Positions 8,048 to 47,164 of a DNA stretch of 64,000 bases are shown here, in pieces (positions within the stretch are counted from its first letter, which is position 1; the number at the start of each line of letters is the position of its first letter). A model generated the notes under the pieces. The model searched no databases. It saw only the letters and a program-made list of their open reading frames with translations, and was not told the DNA's origin. Origin of the DNA: an uncultured Candidatus Saccharibacteria bacterium (GTDB lineage: Bacteria > Patescibacteriota > Dojkabacteria > J137); NCBI GenBank assembly GCA_965230975.1, contig OZ246402.1, positions 229,771-293,770 on the forward strand, read 5' to 3'. The translations under genes were made by a program, and so were the position numbers.

Positions 8048-9322
8048 ATGCCTACAGTAGTTCAATTACCTAAAGAGGAGGATGTAAATCTGCCTCGTAA
8101 AGAGAAATCCTCTAGTAGATTAATTAACAATATTACTTTCTTTGGAGACTCGGCTATTCCAGAAGATGATGATATTTACAGGTCTGTATGGAATGCTGCA
8201 AGATTCTTAGCAGAAAAGGGTTTTACCATTGTTAACGGAGGTGGCCCAGGAATTATGAAGGCTGCTACGGATGGAGCAGAGAGTGTTGGTGGGGAAACAA
8301 TTGCGGTTTACTGGGAGCCAAAATTAGCTTCTTTTTTTGAGGGTAAGAATTTAGCAAATATTACGGATGAATCCGAAGCCTCTTCTAATTACGTAATGCG
8401 AACATTAGGCTTAATTAGTAAAGGGGATGCTTATGTAGTGTGTAAGGGTGGTACCGGTACAGTATCTGAATTCGGTTTGGTTTGGTGCTTAGCAAAGTTA
8501 TATTACGGATGTCACAAGCCAGTAATACTTTACGGCGATTTTTGGGATGATTTGATAGAGTCTTTTCAAAAAACAATGAATATAGATGAAACTGAGCTTG
8601 CAGTGCTTTATCAGGCTACAACTCCTGAGCAATTAATGGATATTCTTCAGAAACATGAAATTTTGGTAAAAGACTGCAGAACAAAGCACTATGAAGGGGA
8701 TGAGCTTGCATTTGTAATTAGTGATAGAGCAAAAGTTGTAAGCCAAACATACAATAAAGTTGCAACTTCTTACCATTCAGAACATGCCGGCAAGCTTGTT
8801 TCTCAAGACCAGTTAGAAGAATTTACTAAACTGGTAAACCCACCGGCTCAGGTTTTAGATATTGGTTGTGGTCCGGGCTTTGACATGAAGTATTTATCTC
8901 AAAAGTATTCTGTTACAGGTTTAGATATCTCTAGCAAGTTTATTGATATTGCCAGATACGAAAACCCAGGTTCAGATATTTATTTAGGAGATATTGTTTC
9001 TTTTGATATAGGAACTTCTAAATACAAAGGTATTTGGGCAAGAGATTCTATTCATCACATTTCAGATAAAGACTTAGATTCAGTATTTCAAAAGATAGCG
9101 GACGCTTTAGTAGATGAAGGTATTTTCTATATTTTGGTTAGAGAAGGTGAGGGTGAAGTAACTGAAACTGAAAAGAAAGATTACTCTACAATTGAGAGGT
9201 TTTACCATTTGTTTTCTGCAGAAGAGCTTACTAATAGAGCAGAGAAGGCGGGTTTAAAAGTTGTAAAAATCGATCATACAAAAAGAAGTCACAAATGGCT
9301 TATTGGAGTTTTTCAAAAATAA
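8048..9322 (+). CDS. Fusion protein: an N-terminal LOG/TIGR00730-family Rossmann domain joined to a C-terminal class I SAM-dependent methyltransferase.
   Basis: The N-terminal half has VNGGGPGIMKAATDGA and KGGTGTVSEFGLVW, which match the LOG-family GGGxGlM and PGGxGTxxE motifs. The C-terminal half has VLDIGCGPGFDMKYL (methyltransferase motif I) plus downstream acidic motif II. Confidence 0.65.
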   Translation: MPTVVQLPKEEDVNLPRKEKSSSRLINNITFFGDSAIPEDDDIYRSVWNAARFLAEKGFTIVNGGGPGIMKAATDGAESVGGETIAVYWEPKLASFFEGKNLANITDESEASSNYVMRTLGLISKGDAYVVCKGGTGTVSEFGLVWCLAKLYYGCHKPVILYGDFWDDLIESFQKTMNIDETELAVLYQATTPEQLMDILQKHEILVKDCRTKHYEGDELAFVISDRAKVVSQTYNKVATSYHSEHAGKLVSQDQLEEFTKLVNPPAQVLDIGCGPGFDMKYLSQKYSVTGLDISSKFIDIARYENPGSDIYLGDIVSFDIGTSKYKGIWARDSIHHISDKDLDSVFQKIADALVDEGIFYILVREGEGEVTETEKKDYSTIERFYHLFSAEELTNRAEKAGLKVVKIDHTKRSHKWLIGVFQK

Positions 9323-9346
9323 CACGACCCTTGCTATAATAAGGGT

Positions 9347-9832
9347 ATGAAAACAATAAATGAAGTATTGCTAGATATACAGAAAGAAAATATAAAAGGT
9401 ATAACTCAAGATAAGCTTGACTTGATTGTTCAAATGCTTAATCTTGACCCTGAGACATTAACTAAACAAGAGTTAAAAGATGCCTTAAATACTTTCCTGT
9501 TAAATTATATTAGGACACCTGAATCTAAATTTACACAAGCTCAGCGTCTTATTAAGTTGTATGCACACAAATTAAGAGCATCAAGTACTATTCCTAAAGG
9601 TGAAGCAAAAGCAGAAGACATGTTAAGGTTTGAAAGAGAGGCTAGGAATAAGTATCAAAGTGTGGTTACAACTGTACTAATCTTGTATGTACAATACATG
9701 CGTAATCAATTAAGCTTTAAATCACCAATAAGATCTACAGAAATGGCTCAAGTTGCAAGGCTTGACATGAATACAGTAAGTATAGAACTTTTTCTAAACC
9801 AATTTCTTGGCACTCAATCAACTGAGTCATAA
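9347..9832 (+). CDS. Hypothetical protein.
   Basis: 161 aa with no recognisable motif. Confidence 0.3.
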   Translation: MKTINEVLLDIQKENIKGITQDKLDLIVQMLNLDPETLTKQELKDALNTFLLNYIRTPESKFTQAQRLIKLYAHKLRASSTIPKGEAKAEDMLRFEREARNKYQSVVTTVLILYVQYMRNQLSFKSPIRSTEMAQVARLDMNTVSIELFLNQFLGTQSTES

Positions 9833-9843
9833 GATATAAAATT

Positions 9844-10821
9844 ATGCCAAAAGCAGGTGTACCCACAAAAGAAGATCAGTTTACTCAAAGGCTAACCGAT
9901 ATATATTCGGATAAATCTAAGGAAATTATTGCTTGTCATAGTATTTTGCATTCTAAGACTTTTAGAATTAACACCTTAAAATCAAATATGTTAGAGGTAT
10001 TAGATTCGTTAAAGACCAAAGGTTTTGAGATTACTGAATCCAGTATGCAAAAAGCCTATATCTGTTTAAATGAATCTGAATCTATTCGGCTTAGTGATAC
10101 AGATGCATCAAAATCATTTAAGATTTACATTCAAGAGCTATCAAGCATGATTCCAGCGTTGTTACTTGATTTACAAACTGGAGATAAAGTTTTAGACCTT
10201 TGTGCGGCACCTGGGAGTAAGACAACTCAAATTGCAGATACGCTTGGTAATAAAGGAGAAATAGTAGCTAATGAACAAAATAGAGATAGGTTTTTTAAAC
10301 TAATGCAAATTATAAAAGACTATGGAGCAGTTGTAAAAACAATAAATGAAAACGGTAAAATATTGCCCCATAAATACCCAAATTATGTCCAGTATTTCGA
10401 CAAAATCATTGTAGACGTTCCGTGTTCAAACGAAGCAAGTCTAAGATTTGATCAACCTAAAACTTTTAAGTTTTGGAAAAGCTCTAACTCGTCAGGTTTG
10501 TCTAAATTACAAAAAGGCATTTTAGCAGCAGGAATTTCTATGCTAAAGCCGGGTGGGACTTTAATTTATTCAACTTGTACTTATGCTGTAGAAGAAAATG
10601 AAGGAGTAGTGGATTGGGCCTTAAAAAAACACCCAGATATTAAACTTGAGGAAATAGATTTTTCTAAAATACCAGAATTAGAAAATGTTAAGAATACTTT
10701 GCCCGGTTTAACAGAATACAAAAATAAGAATTTTGATAAAAGCCTAGGTAATACACTAAGAATTCTTCCAAATGAATACTTTAAAGGATTTTATGTAGCT
10801 AAGTTAATAAAACGCTTGTAG
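9844..10821 (+). CDS. rRNA m5C methyltransferase of the NOL1/NOP2/Sun (RsmB/RsmF) family, lacking the NusB-like N-terminal domain.
   Basis: VLDLCAAPGSKTTQIA (SAM motif), DKIIVDVPCSNEASLR (catalytic Cys motif DAPCSG-like) and TLIYSTCT (second catalytic Cys). Confidence 0.75.
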   Translation: MPKAGVPTKEDQFTQRLTDIYSDKSKEIIACHSILHSKTFRINTLKSNMLEVLDSLKTKGFEITESSMQKAYICLNESESIRLSDTDASKSFKIYIQELSSMIPALLLDLQTGDKVLDLCAAPGSKTTQIADTLGNKGEIVANEQNRDRFFKLMQIIKDYGAVVKTINENGKILPHKYPNYVQYFDKIIVDVPCSNEASLRFDQPKTFKFWKSSNSSGLSKLQKGILAAGISMLKPGGTLIYSTCTYAVEENEGVVDWALKKHPDIKLEEIDFSKIPELENVKNTLPGLTEYKNKNFDKSLGNTLRILPNEYFKGFYVAKLIKRL

Positions 10822-10837
10822 GTGTTATAATCGAGGC

Positions 10838-11605
10838 ATGGACAAAGGTATTAATATTGAAGAAAAAACAAATGAATTTATAAGAGCATCTATAGAAAAA
10901 CTAAGTGATGTTACTCAAGTTTCAGCTCTATTAGAGGGGCAAGCTATTAACGAGCAATTACTACTCGAGATTATTCAAACTTCAAAAAGATATTTTAATG
11001 CACTCATTAAAATTGCAAATTTAACAGATGAAGAATTAGCATTTCAAGAAATTGCTTCTGAGGTATGCAAAATTGAAGGTATAGAGGATCATTCTGCATC
11101 AAGTTTAGATGTGATGGATGTTCATCAGATTCTAAGTAAATTTCAAATAGAAAGACTTTACGAAAACTTAATATCTCCAAATGCAATGGGTGAGATTTAC
11201 CAAAGTGCAGTTAATGATTTAGCCAAAAGAATGCAGGGGGGTACAGATTTGCATTCTCAAGGTTTAAAACCGTCAGATAAAGACCCACGTTTTGACAATG
11301 TTATTTATGGCCACGTAATGAATTTAAAGTATCCAGAAATCATTCACTTTATTATCACTCACTACATAGTAAGAATGTTTAGAGTATTGTTTCTAGAAGA
11401 TAAAAACCCAGAAGTTAGAAAGTTAGCTGAAAGCAAAGATGCCTTAATAAATGCAATTGGGGATATAATTTTAATTAATGCAACCAAAACAAACTATAGG
11501 TATTGGAAGGATTTATTAAAGATTTGGATTACACCAAAAGGAGAAGGTGGCTTAGGTTGGATAGACCCTAGAAAGCCTAGAATCTATCAATCCCTTGTAG
11601 TATAA
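10838..11605 (+). CDS. Hypothetical protein.
   Basis: 255 aa with no recognisable motif. Confidence 0.3.
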   Translation: MDKGINIEEKTNEFIRASIEKLSDVTQVSALLEGQAINEQLLLEIIQTSKRYFNALIKIANLTDEELAFQEIASEVCKIEGIEDHSASSLDVMDVHQILSKFQIERLYENLISPNAMGEIYQSAVNDLAKRMQGGTDLHSQGLKPSDKDPRFDNVIYGHVMNLKYPEIIHFIITHYIVRMFRVLFLEDKNPEVRKLAESKDALINAIGDIILINATKTNYRYWKDLLKIWITPKGEGGLGWIDPRKPRIYQSLVV

Positions 11606-11610
11606 TCATC

Positions 11611-11658
11611 ATGATGAAAAATTCAATCGCTTTTACAAACCATCATCACCTCCATTAA
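11611..11658 (+). CDS. Candidate His-rich leader peptide MMKNSIAFTNHHHLH (15 aa) for hisS attenuation.
   Basis: Translated directly from ATG ATG AAA AAT TCA ATC GCT TTT ACA AAC CAT CAT CAC CTC CAT TAA. Four of the last five sense codons are His. The stop lies inside the first hairpin loop. Confidence 0.45.
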   Translation: MMKNSIAFTNHHHLH

Positions 11659-11712
11659 ATCTGGAGGAATATTCACGCATATTCAAACCTCCAGAAATGG
11701 AGGTTTTTTTCT
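11641..11712 (+). promoter_or_regulatory. Candidate transcription attenuator with mutually exclusive pause, antiterminator and terminator hairpins upstream of hisS.
   Basis: Segment 1 is CCTCCA at 11649-54, segment 2 is TGGAGG at 11662-67, segment 3 is CCTCCA at 11688-93 and segment 4 is TGGAGG at 11698-703 followed by TTTTTTT. Hairpin 3:4 extends to AAACCTCCA-GAAA-TGGAGGTTT plus a T-run, making an intrinsic terminator. Pairing 2:3 extends to an 8-bp TCTGGAGG/CCTCCAGA antiterminator. Confidence 0.5.
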
Positions 11713-11745
11713 TTTTAAGTTATTATCAATTATTAAATAAATTAT

Positions 11746-13020
11746 ATGAACAAATTATCAAATCAACCCGTAAAAGGTACTGCAGACTGGTTTCCAGAAG
11801 AATATGCAGTTAGAAAATATATATTCGATACCTGGAGAAAAGTATGCATAAGCTTTGGCTATCAAGAATACTTGGCACCAGTGGTAGAAAATGCAGAGGT
11901 TTACAGGGCCAAATCCGGCGAAGATGTGGGCGGAACGGAACTAATGTCGTTTTTTGACAGAGGAGGCCGGGAAATGGCAATAAGGCCCGAAATGACACCA
12001 TCTGTAACTCGTATGGTCACTCAAATTTACGAGAGTAGCCCTAAACCAATTAGGTACTTTTCTATTGCAAATTTTTTTAGAAACGAAAAACCTCAAAAAG
12101 GTAGAAACAGAGAGTTTTGGCAATTAAATGCAGATATGTTTGGAAGTGACTCTATAAATGCAGATATTGAAGTATTAAGACTATCTTTAGAACTCTTATT
12201 AGCATTTAATCCTCCAAAAAACAGCTTTGTACTTAATGTAAATAACAGAAAACTTATAGATTACATACTTAACGAAATTGCTAAGGTAACAGAGACTCAA
12301 AGAATTCAAGTAGTTAGAGTTTTAGATAAATGGCAAAAACTACCAATTGAAGAAATTAGAACTAGACTAGCTGTGGCAGGACTTTCTGCTAACCAAACTA
12401 GAAATCTTGAACTATTTATGACAAGTACTAATAGCGAACAACTTGTTAAAAACCTTCCAGAAATAAAAGAATCTGAAGGCTTTAAAGAGATCGAAACAAT
12501 AATTTCAACTTTAAATAACTTAGGATATTCTGAATGGGTAGCCTTTCAGCCAAACATTATTAGAGGCTTTGATTATTATGATGGAATGGTTTTTGAAGTA
12601 TCAGATAAAAATCCAGAAAATCCAAGAGCGTTATTTGGTGGCGGTAGATACAATGGCTTAGCTGGAATATTTGGTTCTCAGTCTTTCCCTGCTGTTGGGT
12701 TTGCCCCAGGAGATGAAACAACCAAGCTTTTTCTACAAGGTTGGAATTTGATACCAGAAAACTTAAAACCAGTAACTTACTATTTACCATTGCTTTCAGA
12801 GGAACTTGTTGAGCCAGCTTCTAAGTTAGCTCAAAAGTTAAGAAATGAAGGGAAAAATGTAATTCAAGGTTTAGAGTTGCAAAAGTTTGGAAAAGCATTT
12901 GATTACGCAAATAAAATAAAGGCAGACTATGTTGTGATTTTTGGAGAAGACGAGCGGGGTAGAGGTGAATATCAAATTAAGGATATGAAAAAAGGCGAAC
13001 AAACAACTTTTAAACTATGA
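11746..13020 (+). CDS. hisS: Histidine--tRNA ligase.
   Basis: Class II aaRS HisRS motifs are present. GTADWFPEE matches GTRDxLPEE, RYF.IANFFRNEKPQKGRNREFWQLNADMFG matches the RYERPQKGRYRQFHQ motif 2 region, and an anticodon-binding C-terminal domain follows. Confidence 0.9.
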   Translation: MNKLSNQPVKGTADWFPEEYAVRKYIFDTWRKVCISFGYQEYLAPVVENAEVYRAKSGEDVGGTELMSFFDRGGREMAIRPEMTPSVTRMVTQIYESSPKPIRYFSIANFFRNEKPQKGRNREFWQLNADMFGSDSINADIEVLRLSLELLLAFNPPKNSFVLNVNNRKLIDYILNEIAKVTETQRIQVVRVLDKWQKLPIEEIRTRLAVAGLSANQTRNLELFMTSTNSEQLVKNLPEIKESEGFKEIETIISTLNNLGYSEWVAFQPNIIRGFDYYDGMVFEVSDKNPENPRALFGGGRYNGLAGIFGSQSFPAVGFAPGDETTKLFLQGWNLIPENLKPVTYYLPLLSEELVEPASKLAQKLRNEGKNVIQGLELQKFGKAFDYANKIKADYVVIFGEDERGRGEYQIKDMKKGEQTTFKL

Positions 13021-13295
13021 CAAATTTAGACCAATTTATTGATACTGCAGAAGATGATCCATTTCAAATCTACGCCTTTTTTAAAGAGGGTTCTATTGAT
13101 TATGTAGAAACAAATGTGGGGAGTGGAGTATTGATTATCCAAGTCAAAGGGGAAAGTTTTGAACACGATGAATCGATTAGGCTTGCTATTGATACTGAAA
13201 CAGCAAGGCTTGTAGCACATTCTATTGATTGTAATACAACATATACTCAGTTAAAGAATCTTTTAACATCTCTTAACATAAGTTGGTTAGACTAG
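13017..13295 (+). CDS. Hypothetical small acidic protein translationally coupled to hisS through an ATGA overlap.
   Basis: 92 aa, with a start codon overlapping the hisS stop. No recognisable motif. Confidence 0.35.
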   Translation: MTNLDQFIDTAEDDPFQIYAFFKEGSIDYVETNVGSGVLIIQVKGESFEHDESIRLAIDTETARLVAHSIDCNTTYTQLKNLLTSLNISWLD

Positions 13296-13309
13296 GAAAC
13301 TAATTAAAA

Positions 13310-13783
13310 ATGAGAATTTTTGGATTTGGCTTTCAACTACACAATGTTTCTTCTAGAACTTTATATCAAATTGAAGGTTTTGAGCACAGAACTCTTCTTT
13401 GGGGTGTAAAAAGTATAGATAAATACCTTGAAAAACTTTTAAAAGATCAGCCACAATATATTTTGGGTTTGGGAATTTATACTGGAAAAGGAAAAGACTA
13501 TTTACATTTAGAAACAGAGACTGTAAATCAGTTTAAAAAATCTAAAATAGATGATGTTATTCAAGAAAAACTAAATATAAATCCATTTTTAAAAGAGTCG
13601 GAAAAACTAAAATTTACAAATACCATTGGTACTTCATTTTGTAATTATGTAAGTTGGAAAATTGTGTCTGAAATTCAAAAGGGCAAACTTAAATCAGAAT
13701 ATTCTTTTGTTCATATTCCCAAAAGTTTTGAAGCTAGTATGTCTGGTACAGTTATTCAGGATCAATTAGATAATCTCTCTTAA
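13310..13783 (+). CDS. Short pyroglutamyl-peptidase I (peptidase C15)-like protein.
   Basis: ILGLGIYTGKGKDYLHLETETVNQ resembles the Pcp ViHlGqagGr..i.lErvAiN region with the catalytic Glu. IGTSFCNYVSW resembles aGTfvCNhv with the catalytic Cys, and SFVHIP resembles the GfIHvP His motif. It is shorter than typical Pcp. Confidence 0.4.
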   Translation: MRIFGFGFQLHNVSSRTLYQIEGFEHRTLLWGVKSIDKYLEKLLKDQPQYILGLGIYTGKGKDYLHLETETVNQFKKSKIDDVIQEKLNINPFLKESEKLKFTNTIGTSFCNYVSWKIVSEIQKGKLKSEYSFVHIPKSFEASMSGTVIQDQLDNLS

Positions 13784-14149
13784 AAGCTCTTTGTATACCC
13801 TTTCAAGTTTAAGGTCAAAAGTAAGTAATTTTGCATTATATCTTTTGCATAAAGCTAAAATTAAACAATCATTTGCCTTTAAACTTCGGGCTGTTGCAGG
13901 CGGAATAGTTTTTAGAAATTCTAGGTCTTGGTCGTTATTATTTATGAATTTGCTTGAGAAACTTCTTGCTAATGAAACAAAATCAAAAAAGTTTGATCCA
14001 ATAGAAAGTTCTGCAGCAACTATAAATGGAACTAAATTTTTACTGTTACTTTCTTGATTCCGCATTATTTCTCTGGCTTTGAGATAGTTACTATCATCTT
14101 CATCTGCAAAAGAGAATATAAAACTTGTATCTATAATATATGTAGTCAT
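13766..14149 (-). CDS. vapC: PIN-domain toxin (VapC-like) of a type II toxin-antitoxin module.
   Basis: The N-terminal IIDTSFI places the first acidic residue, and further conserved acidic positions follow at E and D. The size is 127 aa. It sits immediately downstream of, and overlaps, an antitoxin gene. Confidence 0.6.
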   Translation of the reverse strand: MTTYIIDTSFIFSFADEDDSNYLKAREIMRNQESNSKNLVPFIVAAELSIGSNFFDFVSLARSFSSKFINNNDQDLEFLKTIPPATARSLKANDCLILALCKRYNAKLLTFDLKLERVYKELLREII

Positions 14150-14415
14150 TAACTTCTTACTTCTCTTTGAAAATTAAGTCCATTGCTACCCTTTTTCCCA
14201 CTTTTGAATTTATATTTTTCAAGATTAGATAAATATTCTTCTCGGGCTTTGTCTTGAACCACATCAGTTTTTTTAAAGGTAAGAGTATAAGTTACCTTTT
14301 TTGGTTTGCTTTTAGATATAGTTATTTCTTCGCCCTTTTCGGCTAATGCTAAGTAGTAACCTACGTTTTGCTGAAATTCTGTAGAACTAACAGTCATCTT
14401 TATTATAGATAACAT
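14149..14415 (-). CDS. Phd/YefM-family antitoxin. The likely start is the internal MTVSS.
   Basis: MTVSSTEFQQNVGYYLALAEKGEEITISKSKPKKV matches the Phd/YefM N-terminus (TvSatEarnnfsell..v..GEev.ItrrGkpvA). Its stop overlaps the vapC start. Confidence 0.55.
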   Translation of the reverse strand: MLSIIKMTVSSTEFQQNVGYYLALAEKGEEITISKSKPKKVTYTLTFKKTDVVQDKAREEYLSNLEKYKFKSGKKGSNGLNFQREVRS

Positions 14416-47107: not shown

Positions 47108-47130
47108 GATTAATTTCAGCTTTAATATCA

Positions 47131-47160
47131 AATCCCCCAATCAATTGGGGGATTTTTTTA
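47131..47160 (+). terminator. Rho-independent terminator after rpsI.
   Basis: AATCCCCCAA-TCAA-TTGGGGGATT is a perfect 9-10 bp stem, followed by TTTTTTT. Confidence 0.8.
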
Positions 47161-47164
47161 ATTT

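Follow-up and report, generated by a model that had tools for sequence, protein, structure and literature searches.

Between a gene of unknown function and hisS, in a 64-kb window of DNA (the whole stretch that we analysed, 64,000 nucleotides of contig OZ246402.1), lies an element that we interpret as a leaderless histidine (His) leader-peptide transcription attenuator, which would sense charged tRNA-His and modulate the expression of hisS; we put the probability of this interpretation at roughly 0.7. The gene that follows the element (11746–13020, on the plus strand, as are all the features described here unless otherwise stated) codes for a histidine--tRNA ligase of 424 aa. Its product scored 343.7 bits with TIGR00442 (cutoff 286.75) and 195.7 bits with the HisZ model, below the 271.65 cutoff, and Pfam recognized in it the tRNA-synt_His and HGTP_anticodon (PF03129) domains; the TIGR00442 score and the anticodon-binding domain mark it as a genuine hisS, as a previous sequence-only reading of this region had assumed. 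That reading had also proposed that an attenuator governs the gene. Comparative and masked-folding evidence from five instances supports a His leader peptide with alternative terminator and antiterminator structures, but not an attenuator as the sole control of hisS, given a promoter-like −10 box between the terminator and the gene.

The leader is a mini open reading frame (mini-ORF), MKNSIAFTNHHHLH, located between nucleotides 11614 and 11658 and comprising 14 codons, or 15 if a second ATG at 11611 is used, both ATGs being evident by direct reading of the sequence. The codons after ATG 11614 are AAA AAT TCA ATC GCT TTT ACA AAC CAT CAT CAC CTC CAT TAA, and the peptide reads M(M)KNSIAFTNHHHLH, with its TAA stop at 11656–11658. 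Among the last five sense codons, four code for His (CAT 11641, CAT 11644, CAC 11647 and CAT 11653), exactly as in the 15-codon ORF noticed earlier; the three consecutive ones at 11641–11649 would be the regulatory His codons, and the fourth occupies 11653–11655. Upstream of the mini-ORF, a −10 box that we call P1 (TATAAT, 11601–11606, context TAGTATAAT) lies 7 nt 5′ of ATG 11614 and overlaps the stop codon (TAA 11603–11605) of the preceding 255-aa gene.

The mini-ORF runs into four segments in which the hexamers CCTCCA (11649–54 and 11688–93) and TGGAGG (11662–67 and 11698–703) alternate, as can be read directly. Segment 1 (ACCTCCATT, 11648–11656) can pair with segment 2 through a 6-bp core or with segment 4 through 9 bp. 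Segment 2 (TCTGGAGG, 11660–11667) begins 1 nt past the stop codon and constitutes the 5′ arm of an antiterminator. Segments 3 (AAACCTCCA) and 4 (TGGAGGTTT) form an intrinsic terminator at 11685–11710, AAACCTCCA-GAAA-TGGAGGTTT followed by seven Ts, with a 9-bp stem at 11685–11706 and the T-run at 11704–11710. The part of segment 3 that pairs with segment 2 is CCTCCAGA (11688–95), which gives an 8-bp helix between 11660–67 and 11688–95, and in the minimum free energy (MFE) structures this helix is lengthened by an inner stem-loop, AATAT-TCACGC-ATATT (11668–11683). The resulting 2:3 helix of 8 bp plus 5 bp takes up six of the nine nucleotides of the terminator 5′ arm, so antiterminator and terminator are mutually exclusive. 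The alternating segments, the GAAA-capped terminator with its T-run and the 8-bp antiterminator had all been described in the sequence-only reading, and each was found where it had been placed. Segment 3 repeats the sequence of segment 1, and segment 4 that of segment 2, which allows a terminator-like 1:4 hairpin as well.

This arrangement is far from what chance would produce. The 64 kb contain 22 copies of CCTCCA or its complement (about one per 2.9 kb), and four alternating copies fall within 55 nt here. Congruently, a folding energy of −29 kcal/mol was obtained for the 140-nt region, compared with −15.3 ± 2.9 for shuffled sequences (z = −4.7; none of 200 shuffles was as good). The terminator is the sole terminator-like site of the plus strand between 9 and 15 kb, and the window has just one further strong intrinsic terminator; most of its genes lack one. 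With two in 64 kb, such terminators appear to be scarce in this genome, and the leader terminator is therefore not generic gene-end punctuation. The other strong terminator, at 47130–47162 (hairpin 47130–47155, AAATCCCCCAA-TCAA-TTGGGGGATTT plus a T-run), comes directly after rpsI, the gene for ribosomal protein S9, and looks like an ordinary operon end.

A simpler explanation would be that the hairpin is the ordinary terminator of the upstream gene (10838–11605), accompanied by a mini-ORF and a second hairpin that arose by chance. The site lies 80 nt past the stop of that gene with no other terminator in between, and AT-rich DNA abounds in short ORFs, 13 open codons after an ATG having a probability of ~0.34. 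This explanation is at odds with the scarcity of terminators after the genes of the window, with the −10 box that the element has of its own and with the clustering of the hexamers, and we disfavour it further on the evidence from related loci given below.

For the start of the leader we looked at how genes begin in this genome. There is no Shine-Dalgarno sequence before the mini-ORF, nor before any of the 63 putative genes of the window. At least six ordinary genes of the window, none with a Shine-Dalgarno sequence, have TGnTATAAT 5–6 nt before their ATG, examples being the gene starts at 2788 (+), 6617 (−), 9347 (+), 10838 (+), 50712 (+) and 61806 (−), which suggests that many mRNAs of this genome are leaderless. 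In another group of genes, a −10-like box is found 20–28 nt upstream of the start. Because the genome is devoid of Shine-Dalgarno sites and a TATAAT lies 6–7 nt before the AUG, leaderless translation of the mini-ORF is probable, on a transcript that starts off the P1 TATAAT at or near AUG 11614, and the product is probably the 14-aa form that begins at 11614 rather than the 15-aa form. We infer the place of the start only from the spacing of the −10 box, and translation of the mini-ORF likewise.

Next, we compared the window locus (W) with loci of relatives, obtained as contigs that encode individual HisS proteins. In the closest clade (HisS 64–68% identical), four more sequence-distinct versions of the element immediately precede hisS, so the His mini-ORF and its hairpins are indeed conserved in related genomes, a check that had been proposed from the sequence. 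The locus L011 carries AAGTATAAT-N7-ATG, the peptide MERNKFTKLNLNHYSPQ and segments 1 to 4 of sequence AGCCCTCA, AAGAGGGTT, GAAGCCCTCTT and TGAGGGCTT, with six Ts; L096–98 carry TGATATAAT-N6-ATG, the peptide MKTMIDKLNTHVHPQ and the segments ACCCTCA, TGAGGGTTAA, TTAACCCTCTA and TAGAGGGTT, with seven Ts. In L099 we found TGGTATAAT-N6-ATG, the peptide MKTIELKKRNLHHIHQ and TTACACC, GGTGTAA, TTACACCTCTA and TGGAGGT, with seven Ts, and in L100–102 TGATATAAT-N6-ATG, the peptide MDNNFEITYFHHSL and TCCCTCT, AGAGGGTTTAA, TTGAACCCTCTAA and TTAGAGGGTT, with six Ts. The relatives' leaders have 14–17 codons and a TATAAT-type box 6–7 nt before the ATG, and their U-tract terminators lie 35–60 nt upstream of hisS; a terminator is present in all five instances.

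The leader peptides share little sequence apart from His. When the five distinct leaders were pooled, His accounted for 12 of the 30 codons in their last six positions and for none of the 46 earlier codons, a strong enrichment over the proteome background of 1.49% (binomial P ~ 8e-15); every leader has at least one His within its last six codons (P ~ 5e-6). The relatives have 1–3 His codons compared with 3–4 in W, and at one of these codons L096 differs from L097 and L098 by a synonymous CAT/CAC change. The spacing of the parts is also kept: the first His codon lies 8–9 nt before the core of segment 1 (inside segment 1 in L099), and in all five the stop codon either overlaps segment 2 or precedes it by 0–3 nt.

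What stands upstream of the element varies among the loci: it can be a fusion of LDcluster4 with a methyltransferase, a methyltransferase like RsmB or a hypothetical gene; in L099 the nearest upstream gene is 485 nt away. Since the upstream neighbour differs, the element travels with hisS. These observations, with the four-segment His-ORF layout recurring before hisS behind different genes and a His enrichment of the size given above, make it very improbable that we are looking at the terminator of the upstream gene.

To assess the pairings, we counted base pairs in a gapless pseudo-alignment of the five sequences, which we anchored on the complementary segment cores; the anchored alignment was preferred because MAFFT, run without anchors on the complete leaders, had misaligned L011. 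In the 2:3 pairing, 8 of 14 pairs changed on both sides, with a covariation of 0.264 as compared with 0.112 for shuffled sequences and 0.04–0.12 for slid registers. The combined 1:2 and 3:4 pairings had 7 of 20 pairs changed on both sides and a covariation of 0.250 (0.116 shuffled), and the 1:4 pairing had 5 of 14 such pairs. Slid-register controls scored much lower for every pairing, and unguided MAFFT/RNAalifold independently returned the 1:2 and 3:4 hairpins.

We then folded the leader RNAs, free or with a 12-nt ribosome footprint masked that starts at the A-site codon's first nucleotide, and with the nascent RNA folded to just before segment 4. The MFE structure of the free W RNA is not the pair of hairpins 1:2 and 3:4 but a single long hairpin that abuts the U-run and has 2:3 nested within 1:4. 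The same long hairpin was obtained for L011 and L100, and L096 and L099 fold as 1:2 plus 3:4. Because both types of fold keep a hairpin abutting the U-run, the untranslated state is predicted to terminate. With the ribosome at the early His codons, the 2:3 antiterminator forms at −13.0 (W), −11.8 (L096), −9.7 (L099) and −14.3 kcal/mol (L100), and in L011 at −22.5 kcal/mol, in this case on the full-length RNA. A ribosome placed at the stop codon covers segment 2 and lets the terminator alone form, at −8.1 to −16.4 kcal/mol across the five instances. The change from early-His to stop-codon masking therefore flips antiterminator and terminator in silico as predicted in five of five instances, and a fold with segment 1 masked, which had been put forward as a check, yields the 2:3 pairing on the nascent RNA.

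In the mechanism that we propose, P1 would fire and the RNA would begin at or next to AUG 11614, and a 70S ribosome would load on this 5′ AUG and make the leader peptide. When His-tRNA-His is scarce, the ribosome would stall with one of the three His codons (11641–49) in its A site, covering segment 1. Segment 2 (11660–67) would then pair with segment 3 (11688–95), aided by the inner AATAT/ATATT stem, leaving segment 4 without a partner; the terminator would be absent and the polymerase would read into hisS and probably also into the two short ORFs that follow it, of 92 aa and 157 aa. With ample His-tRNA-His, the ribosome would reach the UAA (11656–58) and cover segment 2, 3:4 would form and the transcript would end near 11710. 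If no ribosome were present, segment 4 would pair with segment 3 or with segment 1, making termination the default.

In principle, a ligand of any kind could bring about the same structures by sequestering segment 1 or by stabilising 2:3, and CAY triplets do occur in the apical region of 2:3 in four of the five instances. The switch could thus be independent of the ribosome, either a T-box-like element that binds tRNA-His or an operator bound by histidyl-tRNA synthetase (HisRS) in the manner of thrS, with the ORF being incidental. However, the sequence of this apical region is not conserved, and in L096 it lacks CAY; the leader has only ~95 nt and no conserved T-box sequence, and neither T-box nor any other Rfam family was matched, even at E ≤ 10. 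Moreover, a switch of this kind leaves unexplained the reading frame, the AUG close to the transcription start site (TSS), the His bias and the position of the stop codon, and we regard it as highly improbable.

At the gathering score, Rfam returned no family at all in the whole window (no tRNA, rRNA or riboswitch), and its His_leader and T-box families gave no match in 11400–11900 even at E ≤ 10. The sub-threshold matches at the locus (mir-8250, rli60 and Phe_leader) fall on the generic hairpins only; the Phe_leader match reached 23.5 bits compared with a gathering score of 55 and covered the terminator hairpin alone. The element is therefore not a member of the Phe_leader or T-box families and, although it would function like hisL, neither is it a homologous member of the Rfam His_leader family, with which it has no detectable homology of sequence or structure.

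Several observations weigh against attenuation or narrow its scope, first among them a second candidate promoter, P2, whose −10 box (TATTAT, 11721–11726) is situated downstream of the terminator and 19 nt upstream of the hisS ATG. This P2-like −10 is conserved: the exact octamer TGTATAAT is found in L011, L099 and L100, and its counterpart in L096–98 is TATATTAT. The W context of P2, GTTATTATCAAT, resembles the TGTATAATCAAT common to L011 and L099, and in L100 TGTATAAT stands in another context. In relatives that lack the leader, TAGTAAAAT or TGTTAAAAT occurs 24–27 nt before hisS, which matches the distance of P2. By our own rough estimate from base composition, chance would hardly place the exact 8-mer in three independent lineages (roughly 0.01 per 35-nt spacer). 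P2 is probably real, and through it hisS could be expressed independently of read-through. Folding raises a second difficulty. With segment 1 masked, the full-length RNA prefers the terminator by ~2–4 kcal/mol in four of the five instances (in W, −15.8 kcal/mol for the terminator vs −13.0 kcal/mol for 2:3), and a stall at the fourth His codon of W (11653) covers part of segment 2 and would not be productive. Because the terminator is favoured on the full-length RNA, antitermination would need kinetic control, and classical attenuators such as trp are likewise kinetic. The comparative evidence has its limits too. The leader of L011 has a single His codon, and the covariation, resting on five sequences and an alignment anchored by us, is supportive rather than conclusive. 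The distribution is patchy, with the close relatives L012, L014 and L015 devoid of the element, and no homologous leader was found in distant relatives (HisS ≤61% identical) among 9 GTDB genome and 80 JGI metagenome loci. That search combined a terminator scan, inspection by eye and a scan for His-rich mini-ORFs, and covered ~85–90 loci of the candidate phyla radiation (CPR) with usable upstream sequence. The terminators that it returned were the upstream genes' own, and the His-containing matches were C-termini of upstream proteins.

The existence of P2 also permits a different division of labour, in which P1, the mini-ORF and the terminator would be a separate, leaderless gene for a small RNA or micropeptide and P2 would be the source of all hisS transcription; in that case, a role in trans might fall to the attenuator-like RNA or to the His-rich peptide. 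That TGTATAAT is kept in L011, L099 and L100, where the relatives without leader have their promoter, would fit this alternative, as would the thermodynamic preference for the terminator in most states. There is also a precedent, since two reports on Sinorhizobium rnTrpL/peTrpL describe an attenuator RNA and a leader peptide that act in trans (PMC6614838, PMC7298713). Outside of its His codons, however, the peptide is barely conserved, as in sensor leaders and not as in functional micropeptides. A separate unit would need neither a conserved, covarying 2:3 alternative pairing nor a fixed spacing between the His codons and segment 1 and between the stop and segment 2, and the element is found next to hisS only, while the upstream neighbours change. 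We consider the separate unit unlikely, if clearly less so than the two other alternatives. In the attenuator that we favour, P2 probably provides basal expression of hisS, to which attenuation from P1 would add a part that is inducible by His starvation. As P2 lies between the terminator and hisS, attenuation would modulate hisS rather than solely control it, and the short terminated RNA or the peptide might additionally act in trans.

In its layout the element resembles hisL and trpL of E. coli and Salmonella: a short ORF carries the cognate codons in or just before segment 1 and its stop before segment 2, a 2:3 antiterminator excludes a 3:4 terminator with its U-tract, and the position of the ribosome is the sensor. 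Unlike hisL, it precedes a synthetase gene and not a biosynthetic operon, and it has 3–4 His codons instead of seven in a row; unlike both hisL and trpL, it has no Shine-Dalgarno sequence, is probably leaderless and has repeated segments that permit the 1:4 pairing. In the Firmicutes, hisS is usually controlled by a T-box in which the tRNA directly binds a leader RNA of >200 nt. The element would share with that system the production of more HisRS when charged tRNA-His is low, and a choice between terminator and antiterminator as its output, but its leader has no T-box signature.

Leader-peptide control of an aminoacyl-tRNA synthetase gene had been called unusual, which is overstated in view of several precedents (PMC1262725, PMC2965389, PMC4007540). 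Attenuators have been described or predicted for pheST in gamma-proteobacteria and for trpS and leuS in Streptomyces (PMC1262725). As in E. coli pheM-pheST and in Streptomyces trpS and leuS, a leader peptide with codons for the gene's own amino acid would control a synthetase gene here, with the differences that the amino acid and the phylum are others and that a promoter-like element lies between attenuator and gene. In bacilli, a His leader has been predicted before a hisS paralog and hisZ, while the main hisS keeps its T-box (Naville and Gautheret, 2010, PMC2965389); as described, that leader resembles ours in joining a short ORF with His codons to a premature terminator outside the Proteobacteria, and it differs in that ours precedes the canonical hisS equivalog in a CPR-like genome. 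For leaderless leaders there are 14 predicted leader peptides of synthetase and amino-acid genes in Deinococcus deserti, with TSSs determined by differential RNA sequencing (dRNA-seq) (PMC4007540), and the polycysteine attenuators of mycobacteria, leaderless short ORFs with TSSs likewise from dRNA-seq and with a functional test of the system (10.1101/834739). These leaders start at the AUG of a short ORF rich in cognate codons upstream of a synthetase or biosynthetic gene, as ours would, in a different lineage and with a start deduced from the spacing of the −10 box. Synthetase genes under leader-peptide control are thus already known, as are leader peptides with a leaderless start, and what is new is the lineage.

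The sequence-only reading had discussed the locus against a Firmicute background, which does not fit the host. The window has ~31% GC, and the nearest named HisS relatives are metagenome-assembled genomes of Saccharibacteria, Pacebacteria, Peribacteria, Gracilibacteria, Falkowbacteria and Doudnabacteria; by these relatives the host is CPR/Patescibacteria-like and not a Firmicute or Mollicute. The identical HisS protein is encoded on a contig of 1.19 Mb. Mapped on a HisS tree, the element is present in both subclades but missing from L012, L014 and L015, which indicates an ancestral element that would have been lost later in some lines. Our full-text literature search yielded no relevant paper on leader peptides, attenuation or leaderless control in CPR/Patescibacteria. 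With somewhat less confidence than we have in the attenuator itself, we propose that a family-level CPR clade with genomes of ~1.1–1.2 Mb has kept a leaderless, repeated-segment attenuator, probably invented independently, that responds to tRNA-His; it would be the first to be described in the CPR.

Gene regulation in CPR/Patescibacteria is little known, and their tiny genomes have few recognisable regulators. If our interpretation is correct, CPR organisms would monitor tRNA charging and adjust the supply of synthetase accordingly, transcription and translation would be coupled tightly enough in these reduced, host-dependent organisms for the position of a ribosome to be sensed, and leaderless initiation would serve regulatory mini-ORFs besides ordinary genes. 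The element would be a compact RNA switch of ~95 nt that can easily be tested, and it supplies a template to search other uncultured lineages: a −10 box, N6–7, an AUG, a mini-ORF with cognate codons and then a repeated-segment terminator. Within the window, scans for mini-ORFs of the form −10-N5–8-ATG and for terminators brought up no other attenuator. One His-rich, −10-proximal mini-ORF on the minus strand, which ends in His codons (2059–2009, MEHYIFVADHCKSHHH), is judged a chance occurrence, antisense within a plus-strand ORF of 241 aa (1501–2226) and with no terminator.

Downstream of hisS, a 92-aa ORF (13017–13295), the start of which overlaps the hisS stop, is followed by a 157-aa ORF (13017–13783 together). 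Neither had a match in Pfam; both are probably co-transcribed with hisS and would hence share any attenuator control. Relatives carry different genes downstream of hisS. On the upstream side, the LDcluster4/Lysine_decarbox-methyltransferase fusion directly precedes the leader and hisS in L011, L097 and L098, and in the compared region of the window (8048–11605) three extra genes intervene, for a 161-aa protein of unknown function, an RsmB/F-like methyltransferase and the 255-aa protein of unknown function (10838–11605) whose stop codon overlaps P1. A gene of the Trp_repressor family (PF01371) stands immediately upstream of hisS in L015 (2649–2945), the sister of the leader-bearing L011, and in the distant L087 (about 1200–1390); both loci lack the His leader, and a Trp_repressor-family protein may take its place there. 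Finally, beside the hisS unit of the window, on the minus strand at 13766–14415, a PIN-domain gene (127 aa) and an overlapping 88-aa upstream partner likely form a VapBC-type toxin-antitoxin pair, and a similar PIN-type pair occupies the same place in L015.

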